NCBI RefSeq assembly: GCF_003334305.1
Contig: NZ_QOWS01000021.1
Strand: one strand, 5' to 3'
Source: Escherichia coli
Lineage (GTDB): Bacteria > Pseudomonadota > Gammaproteobacteria > Enterobacterales > Enterobacteriaceae
Length of the DNA stretch: 64,000 nt
Each line of letters starts with the position of its first letter. The stretch's first letter is position 1. This document shows positions 9,136 to 17,687 of this stretch, one piece after another. The notes below the pieces were generated by a model, which did not search any database, was not told the DNA's origin, and saw only the letters and a list, made by a program, of their open reading frames with translations. A program made the position numbers and the translations under genes.

Positions 9136-10620
9136 ATGCGAAAAATAATCACTCATTTCAAAGTTGTTTTAACGTTACTTCTACCAGTAACCGTATCTGC
9201 CCAGCAGATACAGTGGCAATCCTGTATGGCCAGTCAATTCAACCACTGGTTTGGTGAGGAAAAACCGTCTCCTGACTTACTATGTGGTTATTTGTCTGTT
9301 CCATTAAAATATACAGACACAGGCGGAGATGCTTCTTATGAAAAAAAATCACAAGTCAAACTAGCGTTGACAAAATTGCCGGCAAAAAGCAAGCATAAAG
9401 GAAGTATCCTGATAATAAGTGGTGGTCCCGGGTTACCAGGCATAAATCCTTATATTAACTTTGACTGGCCAGTCACAAATCTTCGTGAGTCATGGGATAT
9501 TATTGGATTTGATCCTCGAGGCGTCGGACAGTCCACTCCGACAATAAACTGCCGGCAATCAGATACAGAGACTCAGGAAAACATAACCGAAAAGCAACAA
9601 GTATTAAATAAAATTAATGCCTGTATCCATAATACCGGAGCCGAAGTCATTCGCCATATCGGCTCTAACGAGGCTGTATACGATATTGATCGTATTAGGC
9701 AAGCCTTGGGGGATAAACAACTGACAGCCGTGGCGTATTCGTATGGAACTCAAATTGCAGCCTTATATGCAGAACGTTTTCCCTACAACGTAAGATCTAT
9801 CGTTCTTGATGGAGTCGTCGATATCGATGACCTGGAGGACAACTTCACATGGCAACTCAAACAGGCACAGAGTTATCAGGAAACGTTTGATCGCTTTGCA
9901 TCCTGGTGTGCGCGTACAAAAAGTTGCCCGCTTTCTTCAGACAGAGATAAGGCAATAACTCAGTTCCATGAGCTATTATCAAAATTACATCACAAACCTT
10001 TATTAGACAGTAAGGGAGAAAATATATCTTCAGATGAACTCATATCATTAACAACAGACCTTCTGCTATGGCGTTCATCATGGCCAACCCTTGCAACTGC
10101 CATACGCCAGTTCTCTCAGGGGATTGTCAGTAATGAAATTGAAACTGCGCTCAGTGCTCCGATAGCCTCAGAAGAGTCAAGCGATGCTTCGGGGGTAATC
10201 CTCTGTGTAGATCAGGGGGATGAGCAATTAACACCAGAAGAGCGAAAATCCCGAAAAGACGCTCTTGCGAATGCCTTCCCGGCTATTAACTTTGACAATG
10301 GACGTTCCGATTCACCTGATTTTTGTGAATTATGGCCAATACATAGCGACCTGAACAAAACTCGCCTGAAAAATACTGTTCTGCCCTCTGGTTTACTGTT
10401 TGTAGCACACAAATACGACCCAACAACGCCCTGGATTAATGCCCGTAAGATGGCAGAGAAATTTTCCAGCCCGTTACTAACAATAAATGGTGATGGGCAT
10501 ACATTAGCTCTCACCGGAGTTAATTTATGTGTAGATAAAGCAGTTGTACATTACCTGATCACTCCACAAAAAATAGAAAATATATACTGCCCAGGAAATT
10601 CTGAAGCAGAAATACAATAA
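9136..10620 (+). CDS. Secreted alpha/beta-hydrolase-fold peptidase-like protein (S33 / tripeptidyl-aminopeptidase-like), 494 aa
   Basis: Signal peptide (…VTVSA|QQ), GGPG and Ser-nucleophile-like AYSYGTQ motifs; AT-rich; sits where appY is in K-12. Confidence 0.55.
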   Translation: MRKIITHFKVVLTLLLPVTVSAQQIQWQSCMASQFNHWFGEEKPSPDLLCGYLSVPLKYTDTGGDASYEKKSQVKLALTKLPAKSKHKGSILIISGGPGLPGINPYINFDWPVTNLRESWDIIGFDPRGVGQSTPTINCRQSDTETQENITEKQQVLNKINACIHNTGAEVIRHIGSNEAVYDIDRIRQALGDKQLTAVAYSYGTQIAALYAERFPYNVRSIVLDGVVDIDDLEDNFTWQLKQAQSYQETFDRFASWCARTKSCPLSSDRDKAITQFHELLSKLHHKPLLDSKGENISSDELISLTTDLLLWRSSWPTLATAIRQFSQGIVSNEIETALSAPIASEESSDASGVILCVDQGDEQLTPEERKSRKDALANAFPAINFDNGRSDSPDFCELWPIHSDLNKTRLKNTVLPSGLLFVAHKYDPTTPWINARKMAEKFSSPLLTINGDGHTLALTGVNLCVDKAVVHYLITPQKIENIYCPGNSEAEIQ

Positions 10621-10641
10621 TTTCAAAATATTCCGCTATTT

Positions 10642-10692
10642 GCTCCCAATGCAAAACATATATTGCATTGGGAGCATATTCATATTTTTGTT
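10642..10692 (+). terminator. Rho-independent terminator after the hydrolase gene
   Basis: 12-bp perfect inverted repeat gctcccaatgca / tgcattgggagc followed by a T-rich tail; coordinates approximate. Confidence 0.6.
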
Positions 10693-10803
10693 ATTATTGT
10701 ATGAAATCGTCTCATGTACACGGTCCTTTTTTCGCCGAAAACTGATATTACTTTAATCAAAAGTTGACGTGCCAGATTCGAAGTAAATTTATAAAATATC
10801 AAA

Positions 10804-11109
10804 TCAATATACATTTTGCACCTTCGAGATAGTAATGACTGTTACTGTAACATGAGTTACAAACAGCTTCATACCCAGAGCTACTGATGTATCAACTCGA
10901 TTCAACAATACCCGATATTTATTCCATGCCTCCAGCAACGATCTTTCTTCCTCCGTTGCGATTTCCAGATCTACAGCATCCTGCAGTGGCGCAATATACT
11001 CACTGAATTCCTGGATGTAGAACTGTGTGGTGACGGTCTTCCAGCCATTCGGCTCCTGCTGTATCGAAGCATACCAGGCTATTTCAATATCGCTATGCTG
11101 CGGCAGCAT
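10804..11109 (-). pseudogene. Tail fibre assembly protein C-terminal remnant (tfaX-like)
   Basis: Translation contains the conserved Tfa motif [37 protein letters not shown] with no N-terminal domain; about 110 nt is a direct repeat of 13690-13800. Confidence 0.7.
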
Positions 11110-11165
11110 TTAACCCCTTGTAATTCATCGCCATAATTGATTTAATTCACAAATAAAACTATAAC

Positions 11166-11834
11166 ATGGTGAAATTAATGAAAAAAAACACAGATGATGG
11201 GGCTAAAATTTACACACCACTTACCCTAAAGCTTTATGACTGGTGGGTTTTGGGAGTATCAAATCGGCTTGCATGGGGATGTCCTACAAAGGAACACCTT
11301 CTTCCACACTTTCTGGAACATTTAGGTAACAACCATCTGGATATTGGTGTTGGAACTGGGTTTTACCTTACTCACGTACCTGAGAGTAGTCTGATATCTT
11401 TAATGGATTTGAACGAAGCTAGCCTGAACGCGGCATCTACAAGGGCTGGGGAATCAAAAATTAAACATAAAATTAACCATGATGTTTTTGAACCTTATCC
11501 CGCGGCGTTACATGGTCAATTTGATTCCATTTCCATGTTTTACCTTCTTCACTGCCTGCCTGGAAATATATCTACAAAAAGCTGTGTAATACGCAATGCG
11601 GCGCAGGCCTTAACTGACGATGGAACTCTATACGGAGCCACAATTCTTGGCGATGGAGTTGTGCACAATAGCTTCGGTCAAAAACTGATGCGCATTTACA
11701 ATCAGAAAGGCATCTTTTCAAACACAAAAGATTCCGAAGAAGGCTTAACACATATACTCTCAGAGCATTTCGAGAATGTTAAAACCAAGGTTCAAGGTAC
11801 TGTAGTAATGTTTTCCGCTTCAGGGAAAAAATAG
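11166..11834 (+). CDS. ybcY: Class I SAM-dependent methyltransferase (YbcY-like), 222 aa
   Basis: Gly-rich SAM-binding motif DIGVGTGFY; same position as the ybcY pseudogene of DLP12. Confidence 0.65.
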   Translation: MVKLMKKNTDDGAKIYTPLTLKLYDWWVLGVSNRLAWGCPTKEHLLPHFLEHLGNNHLDIGVGTGFYLTHVPESSLISLMDLNEASLNAASTRAGESKIKHKINHDVFEPYPAALHGQFDSISMFYLLHCLPGNISTKSCVIRNAAQALTDDGTLYGATILGDGVVHNSFGQKLMRIYNQKGIFSNTKDSEEGLTHILSEHFENVKTKVQGTVVMFSASGKK

Positions 11835-11840
11835 CATCCA

Positions 11841-11882
11841 ACCGCAGCACGTTCTTGCATAAGGCGTGTCTGCGGTTTTTCA
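11841..11882 (+). terminator. Rho-independent terminator after ybcY
   Basis: Stem accgcagcacg…cgtgtctgcggt followed by TTTTT; coordinates approximate. Confidence 0.55.
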
Positions 11883-12348
11883 ACTATTCAGATACATCAC
11901 TCCCATCACATTCATTCCTCCGCATCATAGGCATATAGGCTATATCACCTTGATATTTTTCTTCTTCAGATAAAAACTGTTATCTATGTATACTTTTAAA
12001 CCCAATCCGTGTAGAGTCTCTGCATAAGATAGTTTGCAGTTGCCACTTCAGCTTGCGCCATAAACCGCCTGATTTTTGCCGCCACCTGTTAGCATTCCTG
12101 TATACCTGAAACGACAATGTTTATCTACGAACTTTAAGAACACCCAGGATAAAAATTGTCAACTATATCATATATAACACATTACTAATTCGAGGCTATA
12201 TGAACAGCATACTGATAATCACTTCTCTCCTTATCATATTCAGCATTTTTAGTCATGCCCTAATAAAATTAGGGATTGGCATATCCAATAACCCAGACAA
12301 AACCGATGTATAAGTCAACATATCCTGAATCAGACATACAATATCGCA

Positions 12349-12615
12349 ATGAAAATCAATAATATTTTAAGGAATATCTTCATGAAATCAAAAGACACCC
12401 TAAAGTGGTTCCCTGCGCAGCTTCCTGAAGTAAGAATTATCCTAGGGGATGCTGTAGTGGAAGTAGCAAAACAGGGAAGACCTATCAATACCAGAACATT
12501 GCTTGATTACATTGAAGGAAACATAAAGAAAAAATCATGGCTGGATAACAAAGAATTATTACAAACAGCGATATCAGTTCTTAAAGACAACCAAAATTTA
12601 AATGGTAAAATGTAA
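12349..12615 (+). CDS. Hypothetical protein, 88 aa, AT-rich cargo
   Basis: ORF only; no recognisable motif. Confidence 0.3.
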   Translation: MKINNILRNIFMKSKDTLKWFPAQLPEVRIILGDAVVEVAKQGRPINTRTLLDYIEGNIKKKSWLDNKELLQTAISVLKDNQNLNGKM

Positions 12616-12931
12616 TATAATAAACTTACTTTTTTATCATTTTTCCACTTTAACAACATTTTGCTCCACTTTTCCACGATCAAACAACTTGAAATCTGGT
12701 TAAAATAACACGCAACACTATTCTTCTTCCTTGAGTCCGCCCGGAACTCGAAAAACAAACCGAGTTAAAGCCATTTTTCACAAAATCGATTTTGGGTCTC
12801 ACCAAAATTACGGGGTTGCATACGCATTCGTTTATTTTCGAACGTGTACATACAAATATGCACAAAAATAATCAAAATTATTTTCTGAGATGCATTATGA
12901 TATGAACACCAATTTCGTATAGAGTCTCACT

Positions 12932-13522
12932 ATGTCTCGAATTTTTGCTTACTGTCGGATATCAACGCTGGATCAGACCATCGAAAATCAACGCAGGGAA
13001 ATCGAAAGTGCAGGTTTTAAAATCAAACCTCAGCAAATAATCGAAGAACACATTAGCGGCTCAGCAGCAACCAGTGAGCGTCCTGGTTTTAACCGGTTGC
13101 TTGCTCGCCTGAAATGTGGTGATCAATTGATTGTGACAAAACTGGATCGCCTTGGTTGTAATGCAATGGATATCAGGAAAACAGTGGAACAACTGACCGA
13201 AACAGGTATCAGAGTGCATTGCTTAGCATTGGGGGGCATTGACCTGACCAGTCCAACAGGAAAAATGATGATGCACGTAATTTCAGCAGTCGCTGAATTT
13301 GAACGAGACCTTTTACTTGAACGCACTCATTCCGGGATAGTAAGAGCCCGCGGCGCAGGGAAACGTTTTGGTCGACCACCTGTGTTAAATGAAGAACAGA
13401 AACAGGTGGTATTCGAACGAATTAAGTCAGGTGTAAGTATAAGTGCCATTGCCCGGGAATTCAAAACCTCGCGGCAAACCATTTTAAGAGCCAAAGCAAA
13501 ACTTCAGACACCTGACATATAA
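12932..13522 (+). CDS. pin: Serine recombinase / DNA invertase (Pin/Gin/Hin family), 196 aa
   Basis: N-terminal resolvase catalytic motif (YCRISTLDQ) and C-terminal HTH; strong similarity to e14 Pin as recalled. Confidence 0.9.
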
Positions 13523-13619
13523 AAAATAATCTCGGTGTGAGATGCTTTACGTCTTCCAAGCCCCCTTCCTTGCCGTAAATGGAAAGATACATCTAATTAT
13601 AGAATTTATATGTTTTACC

Positions 13620-14195
13620 CTACGGCAGTGCTGGCCATTCAATATCCTGTGCAGTTGACGTATCAACACGGTTCAGCAACACCCGATACTTTTTCCAGGC
13701 TTCCAGCAATGAGGTTTCTTCCTCCGTTGCGATTTCCAGATCTACAGCATCCTGAAGTGGCGCAATATGCTCACTGGCTACCTGCATCAGGCTGTTTTTT
13801 GTTTCTTCCGCCTCTCGGATCCGGAACAGTTTTTCTGCTTCTGCATCTTTCACCCAGGCTGTGCCGTTCCACTTCTGAAACTCCCCTTCCGGCGATAACC
13901 AGGTAACATTTTCCGGTAACGGACCGAGTTCAGAAATAAATAACGCGTCCCCTGACGCTACGTCATAAACCGTTTTACCCCGATGGTCTTCAACGAGATG
14001 CCACGATGCCTTATCACTGTTGAAAACAGCCACAAAGCCAGCAGGAATATCTGGTGGTGCAATATCGGTACTGTTTGCTGGCAGACCTGTATGAGGCGGA
14101 ATATATGCGTCACCTTCACCAATAAATTCATTAGTTCCGGCCAGCAGATTATAAATTTTTATGGTCCGTGGTTGTTCACTCATTCTGAATGCCAT
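13620..14195 (-). CDS. tfa: Tail fibre assembly protein Tfa, 191 aa
   Basis: Conserved Tfa C-terminal motif; immediately downstream of the side tail fibre gene. Confidence 0.85.
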
Positions 14196-17029
14196 TATGC
14201 AAGCCTCACAATATAGTTAAATGCGATGTTTTTGACGGTGTTTTCCGCGTTACCAGCAGCGTTAACGGTGATGGTGTGTCCATGTGAACCAATCGCAACG
14301 GAGTGCGTATGAGCACCAATACCGACAGTATGCGCGTGTGCACCTGCAGATGCTGCTGTGCCGGACAGTGAATGGCTATGATTACCATCTGTACTGGTAT
14401 TCGCTAACCACCCCGTAGACATACCTACTGAGCCTTGTACACCCCAGGTATTTTGACCTGAGCTTGTATAACCATATTGATAAGTATCTTTAAAAACACT
14501 GGGGTTAAATCGACGGCCATCTCTATGGCTGTGATTACCAGCTGCATTCGTGCTGCCACTTAAACTATGGGTATGCGCACCAGTGTTATTCGTGGATTTA
14601 GTGCCGTAATCAAACGACGATGTGGTTTTCGTCCCCAAATCCGTACTGGATGCGCTGGCGCTGTGGGTATGCGATTTAATGCCGTCCTGTTCCTGAGACA
14701 ATACGGCCCGACCACTGGCAGGTTTGCCCTTAATCGTCCAGCCACGCATATCAGGGATCACGCCTGACGGATAAGCGGCTGCAAGTTTCGGGTATGCAGA
14801 TTTGTCAAAAGTCTGCCCCTGCATCAGGGCATAGCCAGACGGAACGGTATCTGATGGCCACGGGATTGGTGCGCCAGGCGGATAAAACTGCTCTGATGGC
14901 GTATAGAGTGAATAAACTGTACCGTCCGTTAACCCTTCCGGCTTATTAGCAGAATATGCTGGTGACGTATGAATCGTCACGCTGGCATTACTGGTATAAT
15001 CCCATTGAATATTTACACCAGTCGCATAATTTCCGATTGCAACGTAAATATCGTAAGTATCACCAGATGTATTGACCCAGGCAAAATTTGTAAACCCTGT
15101 CGATGTGCGCTGCCATAAAGCACCAGTAATCCCCTTCGGATTACCATTACCTGCACGTAAAACAAGTTCAGATATACCTGCCTGTTGAGGTGACCCCACG
15201 TTAAATCCAGCGCCACCAATCAACGTAATTGAAACAACAGAACTCGCCTGTGGCATGGTTACCGTTGCTAATTTGAACCAACCAGCACCACCGCTGAATG
15301 ACATTGTTGTTGAGTTAAGCGTACCAATATCTTTCGGCGTCAGTGTTATATCCGCTGAAAGCGCCTTACCATTCACCTTACGGGCAGAAGGTACCCGACC
15401 ATTCGCATTGTCATTAGCTGCTTTCACTGCTTTCGGTGTCGCAGCAAGCGTTTCAGATGTGCTGTTGGTTGCACTACTGAGCTGGACAATTCCTTTTTGT
15501 GCTGTCGTAGCGTCCTGTGCGGTGTATTTCCCGTTAGCCAGGTCATACGCGGCCTTAACGGCTTTTGGCGTTGCCGCCTGTGACTCGGAAGTGCTGTTGG
15601 TCGCACTGCTGAGCTGTACTATCCCCTTTTTCGTCGTGCTCGCATCCTCAAGCGCCACGGCGGATGCAATATCCTCTGCCCGTTTTGCTGCTGTCTCGGC
15701 GCGCGTTGCCGCGGATTCCGCCGTACTTTTGCTCTGTGCTGCCGCTGCCGCACTGCCAGCAGCCTCTGTCGCCTTCGTGGATGCCGTCGTGGCGCTGCCC
15801 CTCGCTGCTGACGCCTGTCTGGTCGCCTCATCTTTTGAAGCAGACGCAGATGATGCCGATGACGCCGCCGAACTGGCGGACGATGCGGCAGCCGTTTTTG
15901 AGGATTCTGCGCTGGTTTCCGACGCTTTCGCGTTCGTTTCGGATGTCTTCGCTGCGGAAGCAGACCTCGCTGCTGCGCTGGCCTGTTCAGTGGCTTCGCC
16001 AGCCTTCGTTGTGGCTGTTGAAGCGGATGATGCGGCGCTTTCTGCCGATTTTCCGGCGGCGGTGGCACTGACTGCTGCCTCCTCTGCCTTAATGGACGCC
16101 TCACGGGCCGATGATGCAGCTGCTGTCTCAGAGTCTGCCGCAGCTGAGGCGCTCTGTTCCGCTGCCGTTTCAGAAGACCTGGCATTCGTCTCGGACGTTT
16201 TTGCCGCCTTCACGGAATTTCCTGCCGCCGTTGCCGAGGAGGCTGCACTGCTGGCGCTTGTGGAGGCGTTCGTTTCTGATGATTTTGCCGCCTCTTTGGA
16301 GGCCGCCGCATCTCTGGCTGAAGTGGCGGCTTCTGACGCTTTCGTCGTCGCAGTGGATGCAGAAGTGGCTGCTGATTTTTGTGACGCTGCAGCATTCGTT
16401 TCTGACGTTTTCGCCGCACCGGCACTGGTGGCCGCCGCGCTTTTTGAGGACTCTGCAGCGGCAGCACTTTTTGATGCTTCAGTGGCCTTTGTTGATGCCG
16501 TTCCTGCGCTGGAAGACGCCTCCTGAGCCGAAGTCGCGGCCTGTCCGGCTGACGTGCTGGCTGCACGCGCTGAGCCTGCAGCATCAGTCGCATGGGTTGC
16601 CGCCTCACGGGCAGATGTGCCGGCATCACTGGCTGACTTCTTCGCGGCTGCCGTGTTCTGTGCCACCGCGGACGCGTTACGCGTCACCTCTTCCACCATC
16701 AGTTCAAAACGGCGCAGAGCCTCCGGACGGGCATCATCCTCCGTCATGGCACCGAGAAAATCATTCAGCGTACCGGGTCGGGAATCTTCATACACGGTGA
16801 TGGTCCCGGCATGTGACGGCGGGAATCCTTCCACCAACAGAATAACGCTGTACTGACCGTACTCAACGTCCATGCTGTAACGCCCGGCTTCATCCGGATT
16901 TTCTGAGGCCAGCGTGTTCACCACCACCGTGGTGCTGTTACGTTTTGCTTTCAGCTGGATTGTGCAGTTCTGTACCGGTTTTCCTGTGCCGTCTTTCAGT
17001 ACACCTGAAATCTTTACTGCCATATTCAC
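14195..17029 (-). CDS. stf: Side tail fibre protein (Stf-like), 944 aa, with long Ala/Ser/Thr-rich repeats
   Basis: Repeated KTSETNA-type units, His-rich C-terminal tip (HTHS…HSHS…HAHT…HGHT); lies between lom and tfa. Confidence 0.85.
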
Positions 17030-17087
17030 CCCACAAAAAAGCCCGCCTGAACCGGCGGGCTGTCATAACACTGTGTTACCTGGCTAA

Positions 17088-17687
17088 TCAGAACTTATAA
17101 CCGACACCCACGATGAAACCGTCAGTGCGCCAGTCGCCACTGCCGGAGCCTTCATAAGCAATATCAATGGCCACGGATTCGGTCGGGTTAAACTGCACGC
17201 CAGCTCCCCACGCCAGAGACGTGTTGCTGTGGCGACCGTCATCACTTCCGGTCAGCACGTCGTGCGTTTTCCCCTTGTTGTCAGTTACGCGGAGATAATC
17301 CCCGGAGAAAGTCGACACACGGCTGTAAGCCACACCCGCCATCGCATACGCGCTGAACCATTCATTCACGCGCACAGACGGCCCCGCCATTACGCTGAAC
17401 CAGCGGTTACGAACGGAATCTTCATGCCAGCGAGTATCGCTGTAATGGGTCAGTTGGCGATTCTTGTCTCCTGCATAGCTGAATGACGTCACCAGCCCCA
17501 GCGTATCCGTAAACTCATAACGGTATTTCACGTTAATCCCGTTCAGATCATCACTGCCGGGAACGTTGGTCCGGGCATGAAGATACCCCGCGCTCAGCGT
17601 GGACTGATGTTCAGACGCCCATGCAGGCGCACCGGATACGGCCAGACAAATGGCTGCGGACAAAATGGCGGCACAAACTTTACGCAT
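17088..17687 (-). CDS. lom: Lom outer membrane protein (Ail/Lom family), 199 aa
   Basis: Signal peptide plus beta-barrel-like sequence ending …VGVGYKF; directly downstream of J as in lambda. Confidence 0.85.
   Translation of the reverse strand: MRKVCAAILSAAICLAVSGAPAWASEHQSTLSAGYLHARTNVPGSDDLNGINVKYRYEFTDTLGLVTSFSYAGDKNRQLTHYSDTRWHEDSVRNRWFSVMAGPSVRVNEWFSAYAMAGVAYSRVSTFSGDYLRVTDNKGKTHDVLTGSDDGRHSNTSLAWGAGVQFNPTESVAIDIAYEGSGSGDWRTDGFIVGVGYKF

Follow-up and report, generated by a model that had tools for sequence, protein, structure and literature searches.

The Rac and Qin prophages of Escherichia coli K-12 each carry a gene for a protein of 37 amino acids (aa), namely, ynaM in Rac and ynfT in Qin, located upstream of a gene for a small cold shock protein (ynaE or ydfK) and a pin-type gene (pinR or pinQ). 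The Qin gene was first published as ynfQ, and the ynaM and ynfQ sequences encode the same 37 aa (PMC6001520). YnaM and YnfT were among the small proteins detected by immunoblotting with a chromosomal sequential peptide affinity (SPA) tag (PMC6001520), and the abundance of tagged YnaM in ordinary lysogeny broth (LB) cultures was above that of most newly detected small proteins (10.1101/511675); ynfT is counted among the uncharacterized genes of the Qin prophage (PMC11551758). Of the cold shock genes, ydfK shows a drastic up-regulation at low temperature (PMC10654059), and intact YdfK and YnaE were both detected after refrigeration (PMC5594050). Here, we characterized the corresponding region, between ybcY and pin, in a 64,000-nucleotide (nt) stretch of an E. 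coli genome (contig NZ_QOWS01000021.1; referred to below as the window). The original prediction, made from the sequence of the window, had placed two small open reading frames (ORFs) in this AT-rich region, i.e., a hydrophobic peptide of 37 aa with a single transmembrane (TM) segment starting at about position 12200 and an ORF of 88 aa; neither was thought to have recognizable homology, and the peptide was suggested as a possible type I toxin or membrane-active effector.

The region very probably comprises two catalogued genes of the accessory ("moron") type carried by lambdoid prophages, ynfT and ydfK, whose products may act as a membrane partner and a connector protein, respectively. Both genes are already known, being present in the K-12 annotation, NCBIfam, Pfam, PHROGs, and approximately half of the complete E. 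coli genomes. The small ORFs do lie between ybcY and a gene for a pin-type invertase, and the described AT-richness is real (GC content of 0.34 in the ynfT-ydfK stretch versus 0.50 across the window). The first frame is an ATG ORF at 12200..12313 (+) preceded by GAGG 4 nt upstream, and its product is, as had been proposed, a hydrophobic 37-aa peptide (grand average of hydropathy [GRAVY], 0.99); the hydrophobic residues span approximately positions 4 to 28, and the tail behind them is polar. It matches the NCBIfam model NF041477 (YnaM_YnfT_fam) at 63.9 bits (cutoff, 35; E value, 1.2e-17) over model positions 1 to 34 of 34, as well as phrog_35882 (E value, 3e-20), a PHROG of unknown function, and it is 100% identical to both YnaM and YnfT of K-12, as checked on the K-12 loci. 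The product of the second frame matches phrog_2718 (E value, 1.8e-47) over positions 1 to 77 of 77, and its database matches carry a precomputed assignment to PF27475 (YnaE). This protein is 100% identical to K-12 YdfK ("cold shock protein YdfK") and one residue off YnaE; it has the same length and the same start, with no protein-level difference from YdfK. A Pfam-A scan of the 88-aa ORF returned no match even at an E value of ≤10, the scanned copy probably being without PF27475, and a sequence search of the PDB with YdfK yielded chance matches alone (E value, ≥0.3). The absence of homology that had been reported for the two ORFs is therefore incorrect, because both belong to named families (YnaM/YnfT and YdfK/YnaE).

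An ATG ORF of 88 codons is present at 12349..12615 (+), as listed originally, but the real protein is 77 aa long and starts at the ATG at 12382, so the ORF had been called 11 codons too long. This assignment is made because five lines of evidence agree. First, the RefSeq start of ydfK is the ATG equivalent to 12382. Second, this ATG is preceded by a Shine-Dalgarno (SD) sequence, and nothing SD-like lies upstream of the ATG at 12349. Third, the N-terminal pattern MKS.DTL.W was found in all 18 of the aligned ydfK homologs (identity down to 53%), with M1, L7, W9, and P11 invariant, and no aligned family member carries an extension upstream of 12382. Fourth, the Salmonella phage copy has no ATG at the position of 12349. 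Fifth, calculation for proteins of 77 aa gave monoisotopic masses of 8772.80 Da (YdfK) and 8745.75 Da (YnaE), which agree with the published top-down masses (8772.78 Da and 8745.75 Da, respectively; PMC5594050).

Both genes are protein coding and under purifying selection, because the comparison of the E. coli-type genes with the approximately 79%-identical copies of Salmonella phages gave dN/dS ratios (nonsynonymous to synonymous substitution rates) of ~0.09 for ynfT (dN, 0.099; dS, 1.076) and ~0.08 for ydfK (dN, 0.073; dS, 0.914). It is this conservation that identifies the ORFs as real, the length of the frames alone being no better than chance: when the 1.1-kb spacer was shuffled, ATG-initiated ORFs of ≥37 codons arose in 87% of the shuffles and those of ≥77 codons in 7.8%. 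The frequency of the former, together with the fact that T-rich DNA favors hydrophobic codons, could be taken to mean that the two ORFs are chance reading frames of an AT-rich spacer. That reading is practically out of the question and already refuted, given the purifying selection, the existence of homologs with 30 to 50% identity, the curated models, and the published detection of both proteins (PMC6001520; PMC5594050).

The conservation of the peptide, one of the checks that had been proposed for it, extends well beyond close relatives. Since YnfT is short, it was searched for with tblastn on plasmids, with hidden Markov models on homologous loci, and with a profile search of representative proteins. 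Three loci (L013, L069, and L070) contain small ORFs of 35 to 39 aa upstream of distant ydfK homologs (51 to 60% identity), and these ORFs retain a TM helix and, C-terminal to it, the pattern [KR]L(G/A).(G/A)(I/V)SNN(P/N/Q)D with an acidic end. YnfT itself fits this family pattern of 35 to 39 aa with an N-terminal TM helix, a basic residue, and an acidic tail of the (G/A)(I/V)SNN.D type. The SNN.D tail is invariant across YnfT homologs that are only 30 to 50% identical, and the family alignment showed I6, F14, A20, S29, N30, N31, and D33 to be invariant. The profile search of 1.84 billion representative proteins produced 17 matches at an E value of ≤0.001, all but one of which belong to the small YnfT family; most are truncated or chimeric YnfT-type proteins, three are further full-length members, and the exception is a 421-aa protein aligned over hydrophobic positions alone. 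The family members P0101, P0103, and P0111 likewise conform to the pattern of the alignment. Copies of ynfT on Salmonella phages and a Salmonella plasmid retain its SD sequence, GAGG, and the L069 homolog is preceded by AAGGAG.

Collectively, these data support the view that ynfT is prophage cargo that is genuinely translated into a small, hydrophobic, single-pass protein. Its acidic SNNPDKTDV tail is probably cytoplasmic, because its positive charges, K23 and K34, lie on the C-terminal side (the positive-inside rule). Small inner-membrane regulators of E. coli, such as AcrZ, MgtS, MgrB, and PmrR, are 30 to 50 aa long, have a single TM helix and a short polar tail, and accumulate without toxicity; YnfT shares this build, with no sequence relationship to these proteins. 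YnfT would consist of one TM helix (approximately residues 4 to 28) with a Lys where the helix meets the cytoplasm, and of a short acidic tail that contains the family motif SNNPD. By analogy with such small membrane proteins, its most likely mode of action, rather than that of a pore-forming toxin, would be to bind and modulate a larger inner-membrane protein.

The originally suggested alternative is that ynfT encodes a type I toxin, i.e., a small hydrophobic peptide that damages the inner membrane and whose mRNA is silenced by a locus-encoded antisense RNA. Like the Ibs/Sib, Ldr/Rdl, TisB/IstR, and PepG1 systems, ynfT specifies a short hydrophobic single-TM peptide on a mobile element, and its 37 aa and GRAVY value are those of a small hydrophobic membrane peptide. 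A subthreshold match to the NCBIfam PepG1 toxin model (E value, 0.055), a single promoter-like match on the minus strand (12391 to 12364) that would read antisense through ynfT, and the L077 family member, an isolated gene that has long flanks and neighbors an OLD-family nuclease gene, could also be counted in its favor. However, the PepG1 match (13.1 bits versus a cutoff of 70) is the sole match to a toxin family, PADLOC returned none, and the profile search described above recovered the small YnfT family alone; YnfT thus matches no known toxin family in these searches. The antisense promoter match is not conserved in position at L002, at L069 (where it is absent), or on pLG24p2, and it is not found at the same place in the Salmonella copy; in the pLG24p2 copy, homology ends just after the stop codon, so that the DNA of the match is missing altogether. 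Promoter-like matches were no more frequent than in shuffled sequences. No terminator-like site was detected on either strand of 11800-13000 by a scan that missed a G+C-rich hairpin with a T-run (CCGCAGCACG...CGTGTCTGCGG; 11843-11886) just after ybcY. Rfam revealed no small RNA (sRNA), toxin-antitoxin RNA, or cspA thermoregulator (10500-14000 at an E value of ≤1 and 11780-12950 at an E value of ≤10). The antisense RNA search that had been recommended, as performed with Rfam and the promoter and terminator scans, hence points, at the level of sequence, to no antitoxin RNA that is transcribed from a conserved promoter of its own and ends at a conserved terminator. The only local Rfam match, to CssrB (28.5 bits versus a gathering cutoff [GA] of 76; minus strand), was rejected, being merely the ybcY terminator hairpin.

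The mRNAs of typical type I toxins are highly structured. In contrast, folding predictions for the leader, the ynfT ORF and mRNA, the intercistronic spacer, and the ribosome-binding site of ydfK gave no structural signal relative to shuffled sequences (z scores of -0.56 to +1.1), and the fold of 12290-12420 was no more stable than its shuffles (z score, +1.1). The position of ynfT directly upstream of ydfK is operon-like, and the relatively high levels of tagged YnaM in normal cultures (10.1101/511675) argue against a repressed toxin. With no conserved antisense promoter or terminator, no mRNA structure beyond that of shuffled sequences, and no toxin family in these sequence-based searches, the type I toxin suggestion is not supported, and we consider it highly improbable.

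Another possibility is that YnfT acts at the membrane directly for the phage and independently of YdfK, e.g., by excluding superinfecting phages or by modulating lysis or DNA injection. Such a role would suit the carriage of ynfT by functional temperate phages (Turner, mEp460, Tritos, and 2H10), its constant location in accessory regions beside tail-fiber, tail-fiber-assembly, or integrase genes, and its membership in a PHROG of unknown function. Comparisons with NCBIfam, PHROG, and PADLOC, however, showed no similarity to a known exclusion, holin, or spanin family, and ynfT is intact in the long-defective Rac and Qin prophages of K-12, which suggests a value to the host. A phage-directed membrane role therefore seems unlikely.

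The order of ynfT followed by ydfK on the same strand, with a gap of 22 to 76 nt, was found in four lineages (the E. coli type, the Salmonella type, L013, and L069/L070). The gap is 22 nt in L069 and L070, which would permit translational coupling. This arrangement raises the question of whether ynfT is mainly a regulatory upstream ORF, the translation of which, rather than its product, controls ydfK, e.g., as part of a cold-responsive leader. Cold shock genes often have long regulatory leaders. The cold induction of ydfK (PMC5594050; PMC10654059) and the closeness of the two genes in the four lineages fit this explanation; the conservation of the peptide itself (dN/dS ratio of ~0.09 and an invariant SNN.D tail), its stable and detectable product (PMC6001520), the occurrence of ynfT without ydfK in four contexts, and the lack of any structure sequestering the ydfK ribosome-binding site or of a match to the cspA thermoregulator or another Rfam family at an E value of ≤10 contradict it. 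A mainly regulatory ynfT is thus very unlikely.

E. coli-type and Salmonella-type copies are unrelated in the alignment upstream of 12138, approximately 62 nt before the ynfT ATG, and the conserved block that begins there may hold promoter or leader elements. Peaks for several RNA polymerase holoenzymes obtained by genomic systematic evolution of ligands by exponential enrichment (gSELEX) are located ~320 to 460 nt upstream of the ydfK and ynaE starts (PMC5493296); by our own coordinate conversion, they would fall upstream of ynfT. H-NS is marked against the flanking spacers in published tables (PMC3946193). An information-theory scan predicted a 17.1-bit cluster of Fur sites centered on +8 relative to the start codon of each of ydfK and ynaE, which are both listed as Fur activated (PMC2189734); in the window, the cluster would fall at ~12382-12400. 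A search of the window upstream of ynfT, allowing up to two mismatches, did not recover the hexamer pairs that have been reported as promoters of ydfK and ynaE (PMC3946193).

The other new element besides the YnfT signature and synteny is a fold prediction for YdfK. An AlphaFold2 model built from the family alignment (mean predicted local distance difference test [pLDDT], 80.7; predicted template modeling score [pTM], 0.69) is a three-helix bundle with helices at residues 15 to 30, 37 to 47, and 52 to 75, so that the modeled protein takes the three-helix fold of YmgB/AriR. A Foldseek search of AFDB50 with this model listed, beyond the YdfK family, YcgZ and YmgB/AriR among weaker neighbors (E value, ~0.2), alongside many uncharacterized proteins. 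Compared with YcgZ, YmgA, and AriR (PDB 2OXL), YdfK has in common an (I/L)LG.AV motif in helix 1 and differs in showing 15% identity, in being prophage borne, and in being often paired with a gene for a small membrane protein. A further parallel is that the regulator of the ycgZ operon, BluF, carries the annotation of an antirepressor responding to blue light and temperature. In L069, three such paralogs are clustered, as in ycgZ-ymgA-ariR: small ORFs with an ILG(D/E)AV motif (1790-2026 [-] and 2431-2724 [+] of that locus) flank the ydfK homolog, and one of them aligned with the YdfK profile in hhalign (E value, 8.9e-5; probability, 60%) and weakly with FumD/YdhZ (E value, 2e-4). This clustering hints at a wider YdfK/AriR/FumD-like superfamily grouped in phages. 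In an unbiased overexpression screen of the ASKA library (~40,000 clones; 29 candidates), cpdA, ydfK, and ycgZ were among the repressors of a ytfK reporter (PMC8600398, Table 1), and YmgB/AriR exerts its effect by binding larger proteins, namely, SpoT (PMC10704370) and, as reported for the Rcs pathway, the cytoplasmic domain of RcsC (PMC11451591). Because of the AriR-like model, the weak YcgZ sequence signals, and the shared outcome of the ytfK screen, we infer by analogy that YdfK may work like a connector protein.

In the reading that we prefer, the ydfK/ynaE product is a basic, cytoplasmic protein of 77 aa with three predicted helices that is known to be strongly cold induced; ynfT and ydfK would usually be cotranscribed from a promoter upstream of ynfT; and YdfK would bind a larger host signaling protein and thereby retune stress and biofilm physiology at low temperature. 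A bolder version, which we regard as speculative and rather unlikely, is that the two proteins form a two-part prophage signaling module in which YdfK is a cold-induced connector rewiring the Rcs or SpoT/(p)ppGpp pathway and YnfT is its membrane partner or tether, acting through the SNN.D tail. If it is true, such a module would let lambdoid prophages reprogram host envelope and biofilm physiology at low temperature.

Several observations weigh against the proposed joint action of the two genes. The pair is not obligate: genes of the YnfT family occur without ydfK on pLG24p2, L073, L075, and L077, in contexts that include the Salmonella plasmid pLG24p2, a gene for a TraR/DksA-type zinc-finger protein, ynfU with a cold shock domain gene, and an OLD-family nuclease gene, and one ydfK clade adjoins ynfU and a GH94 gene without ynfT. 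No convincing -35/-10 pair was found upstream of ynfT, and promoter-like counts were no higher than in shuffled sequences. The two genes may be regulated separately, because YnaM is abundant at 37°C while ydfK is described as cold induced. Regarding the connector role, YdfK scored 15.9 bits against the YcgZ_fam model (E value, 0.011; cutoff, 80), and hhalign gave an E value of 0.0014 with a probability of 18% for YcgZ and probabilities of 1.8% for AriR and 3.6% for YmgA. YdfK thus falls outside the YcgZ and AriR families as defined by sequence profiles, and it is not filed under either because their sequence models are not matched. The connector and membrane-partner mechanisms are themselves analogies. 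The discovery value of the region is small, as both genes were known and the novelty is limited to the AriR-like fold prediction for YdfK and the signature and synteny of the YnfT family; its residual value is functional, since both proteins are uncharacterized "y-gene" products. The YdfK fold, the ynfT-ydfK order in four lineages, and the TM-plus-SNN.D signature provide cheap and concrete hypotheses for two widespread cargo genes that are expressed under cold and stationary-phase stress.

Coordinates of the ynfT-ydfK features and of the adjacent ybcY gene in the window
Feature	Position	Strand	Description
ybcY	11166-11834	+	Class I S-adenosylmethionine-dependent methyltransferase; intact, 222 aa; 99% identical to K-12 ybcY
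Conserved upstream block (GAAC..GGATAAAAATTGTCAA..)	12138..12199	+	Homology with Salmonella phage and plasmid copies starts here
ynfT SD sequence (GAGG)	12192..12195	+	4 nt before ATG; read from the sequence
ynfT (ynaM-type) coding sequence	12200..12313	+	37 aa plus stop; from the ORF list, NF041477, and the RefSeq annotation
ynfT-ydfK intercistronic spacer	12314..12381	+	68 nt; AT-rich, unstructured; includes the ydfK SD sequence
11 extra in-frame codons of the 88-aa ORF	12349..12381	+	Outside the real protein
ydfK SD sequence (AAGGA)	12369-12373	+	8 nt before the ATG at 12382
ydfK (ynaE-type) coding sequence	12382..12615	+	77 aa plus stop; small cytoplasmic protein induced by cold shock; predicted to form a three-helix bundle of the YmgB/AriR type

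Relative to the pin-type gene, ynfT and ydfK in the window are placed as their counterparts are in the K-12 Rac and Qin prophages, and the whole 1.1-kb spacer is 99% identical to that of K-12; the difference is that the prophage of the window occupies the DLP12/ompT locus and has an intact ybcY upstream of the pair. In K-12, ybcY is a pseudogene with a 14-bp deletion near its start. Judging from strain PEC209, in which the identical arrangement adjoins ompT-envY-ybcH, the prophage of the window is a lambdoid prophage at this locus. A megablast search of 5,426 complete E. coli genomes with the ybcY-pin spacer (11835-12931) detected the spacer in 2,810 genomes, and ybcY was found in 3,832 of the 5,426. 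All 29 sampled full-length spacer matches are annotated with a "YnaM/YnfT family protein" (ynaM or ynfT) and a "cold shock protein YdfK." Temperate phage isolates (Turner, mEp460, Tritos, 2H10, and the PhiR series) also carry the ynfT-ydfK module, and diverged copies (~79% identical) are present in Salmonella phages. In strain EC0880B (NZ_OX460335.1), an IS1 insertion interrupts this spacer, which matches in two pieces at 100% identity with an annotated IS1 transposase gene between them. Relatives of ynfT and ydfK (L005-L007, L075-L076, and L008-L011) repeatedly adjoin other small genes that are linked to stress or are of the Qin prophage type, namely, those for GnsAB, a cold shock domain protein, YnfU, and DUF892.

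Downstream of ydfK are the gene for the pin-type serine invertase and then tfa and stf on the opposite strand. The sequence upstream of pin contains TGTACA-16-AATAAT (12845-12872, +), a hexamer pair identical to the constitutive sigma-70 promoter that gSELEX assigned to both pinQ and pinR, with an H-NS site marked for the pinQ entry (PMC3946193). A search of 12600-17300 for inverted crossover sites for Pin around pin, tfa, and stf gave no clear ones, the only candidates being two weak pairs inside stf (21 nt, 76%; 18 nt, 83%). On the other side of the pair, between the gene for a 494-aa alpha/beta hydrolase (9136-10620) and ybcY, a 101-aa ORF (10804-11109, -) is a shortened tail-fiber-assembly gene; the annotated tfa remnant of a matching genome covers the 3' part of this ORF alone and is incomplete, with a missing N terminus. 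The candidate sRNA family IS009 of Rfam overlaps the tfa coding sequence, matching inside the tail-fiber-assembly gene at 13654-13852 (-; 226.7 bits, above the GA of 117) and inside the tfa remnant at 10883-11086 (-; 107.7 bits, below the GA).

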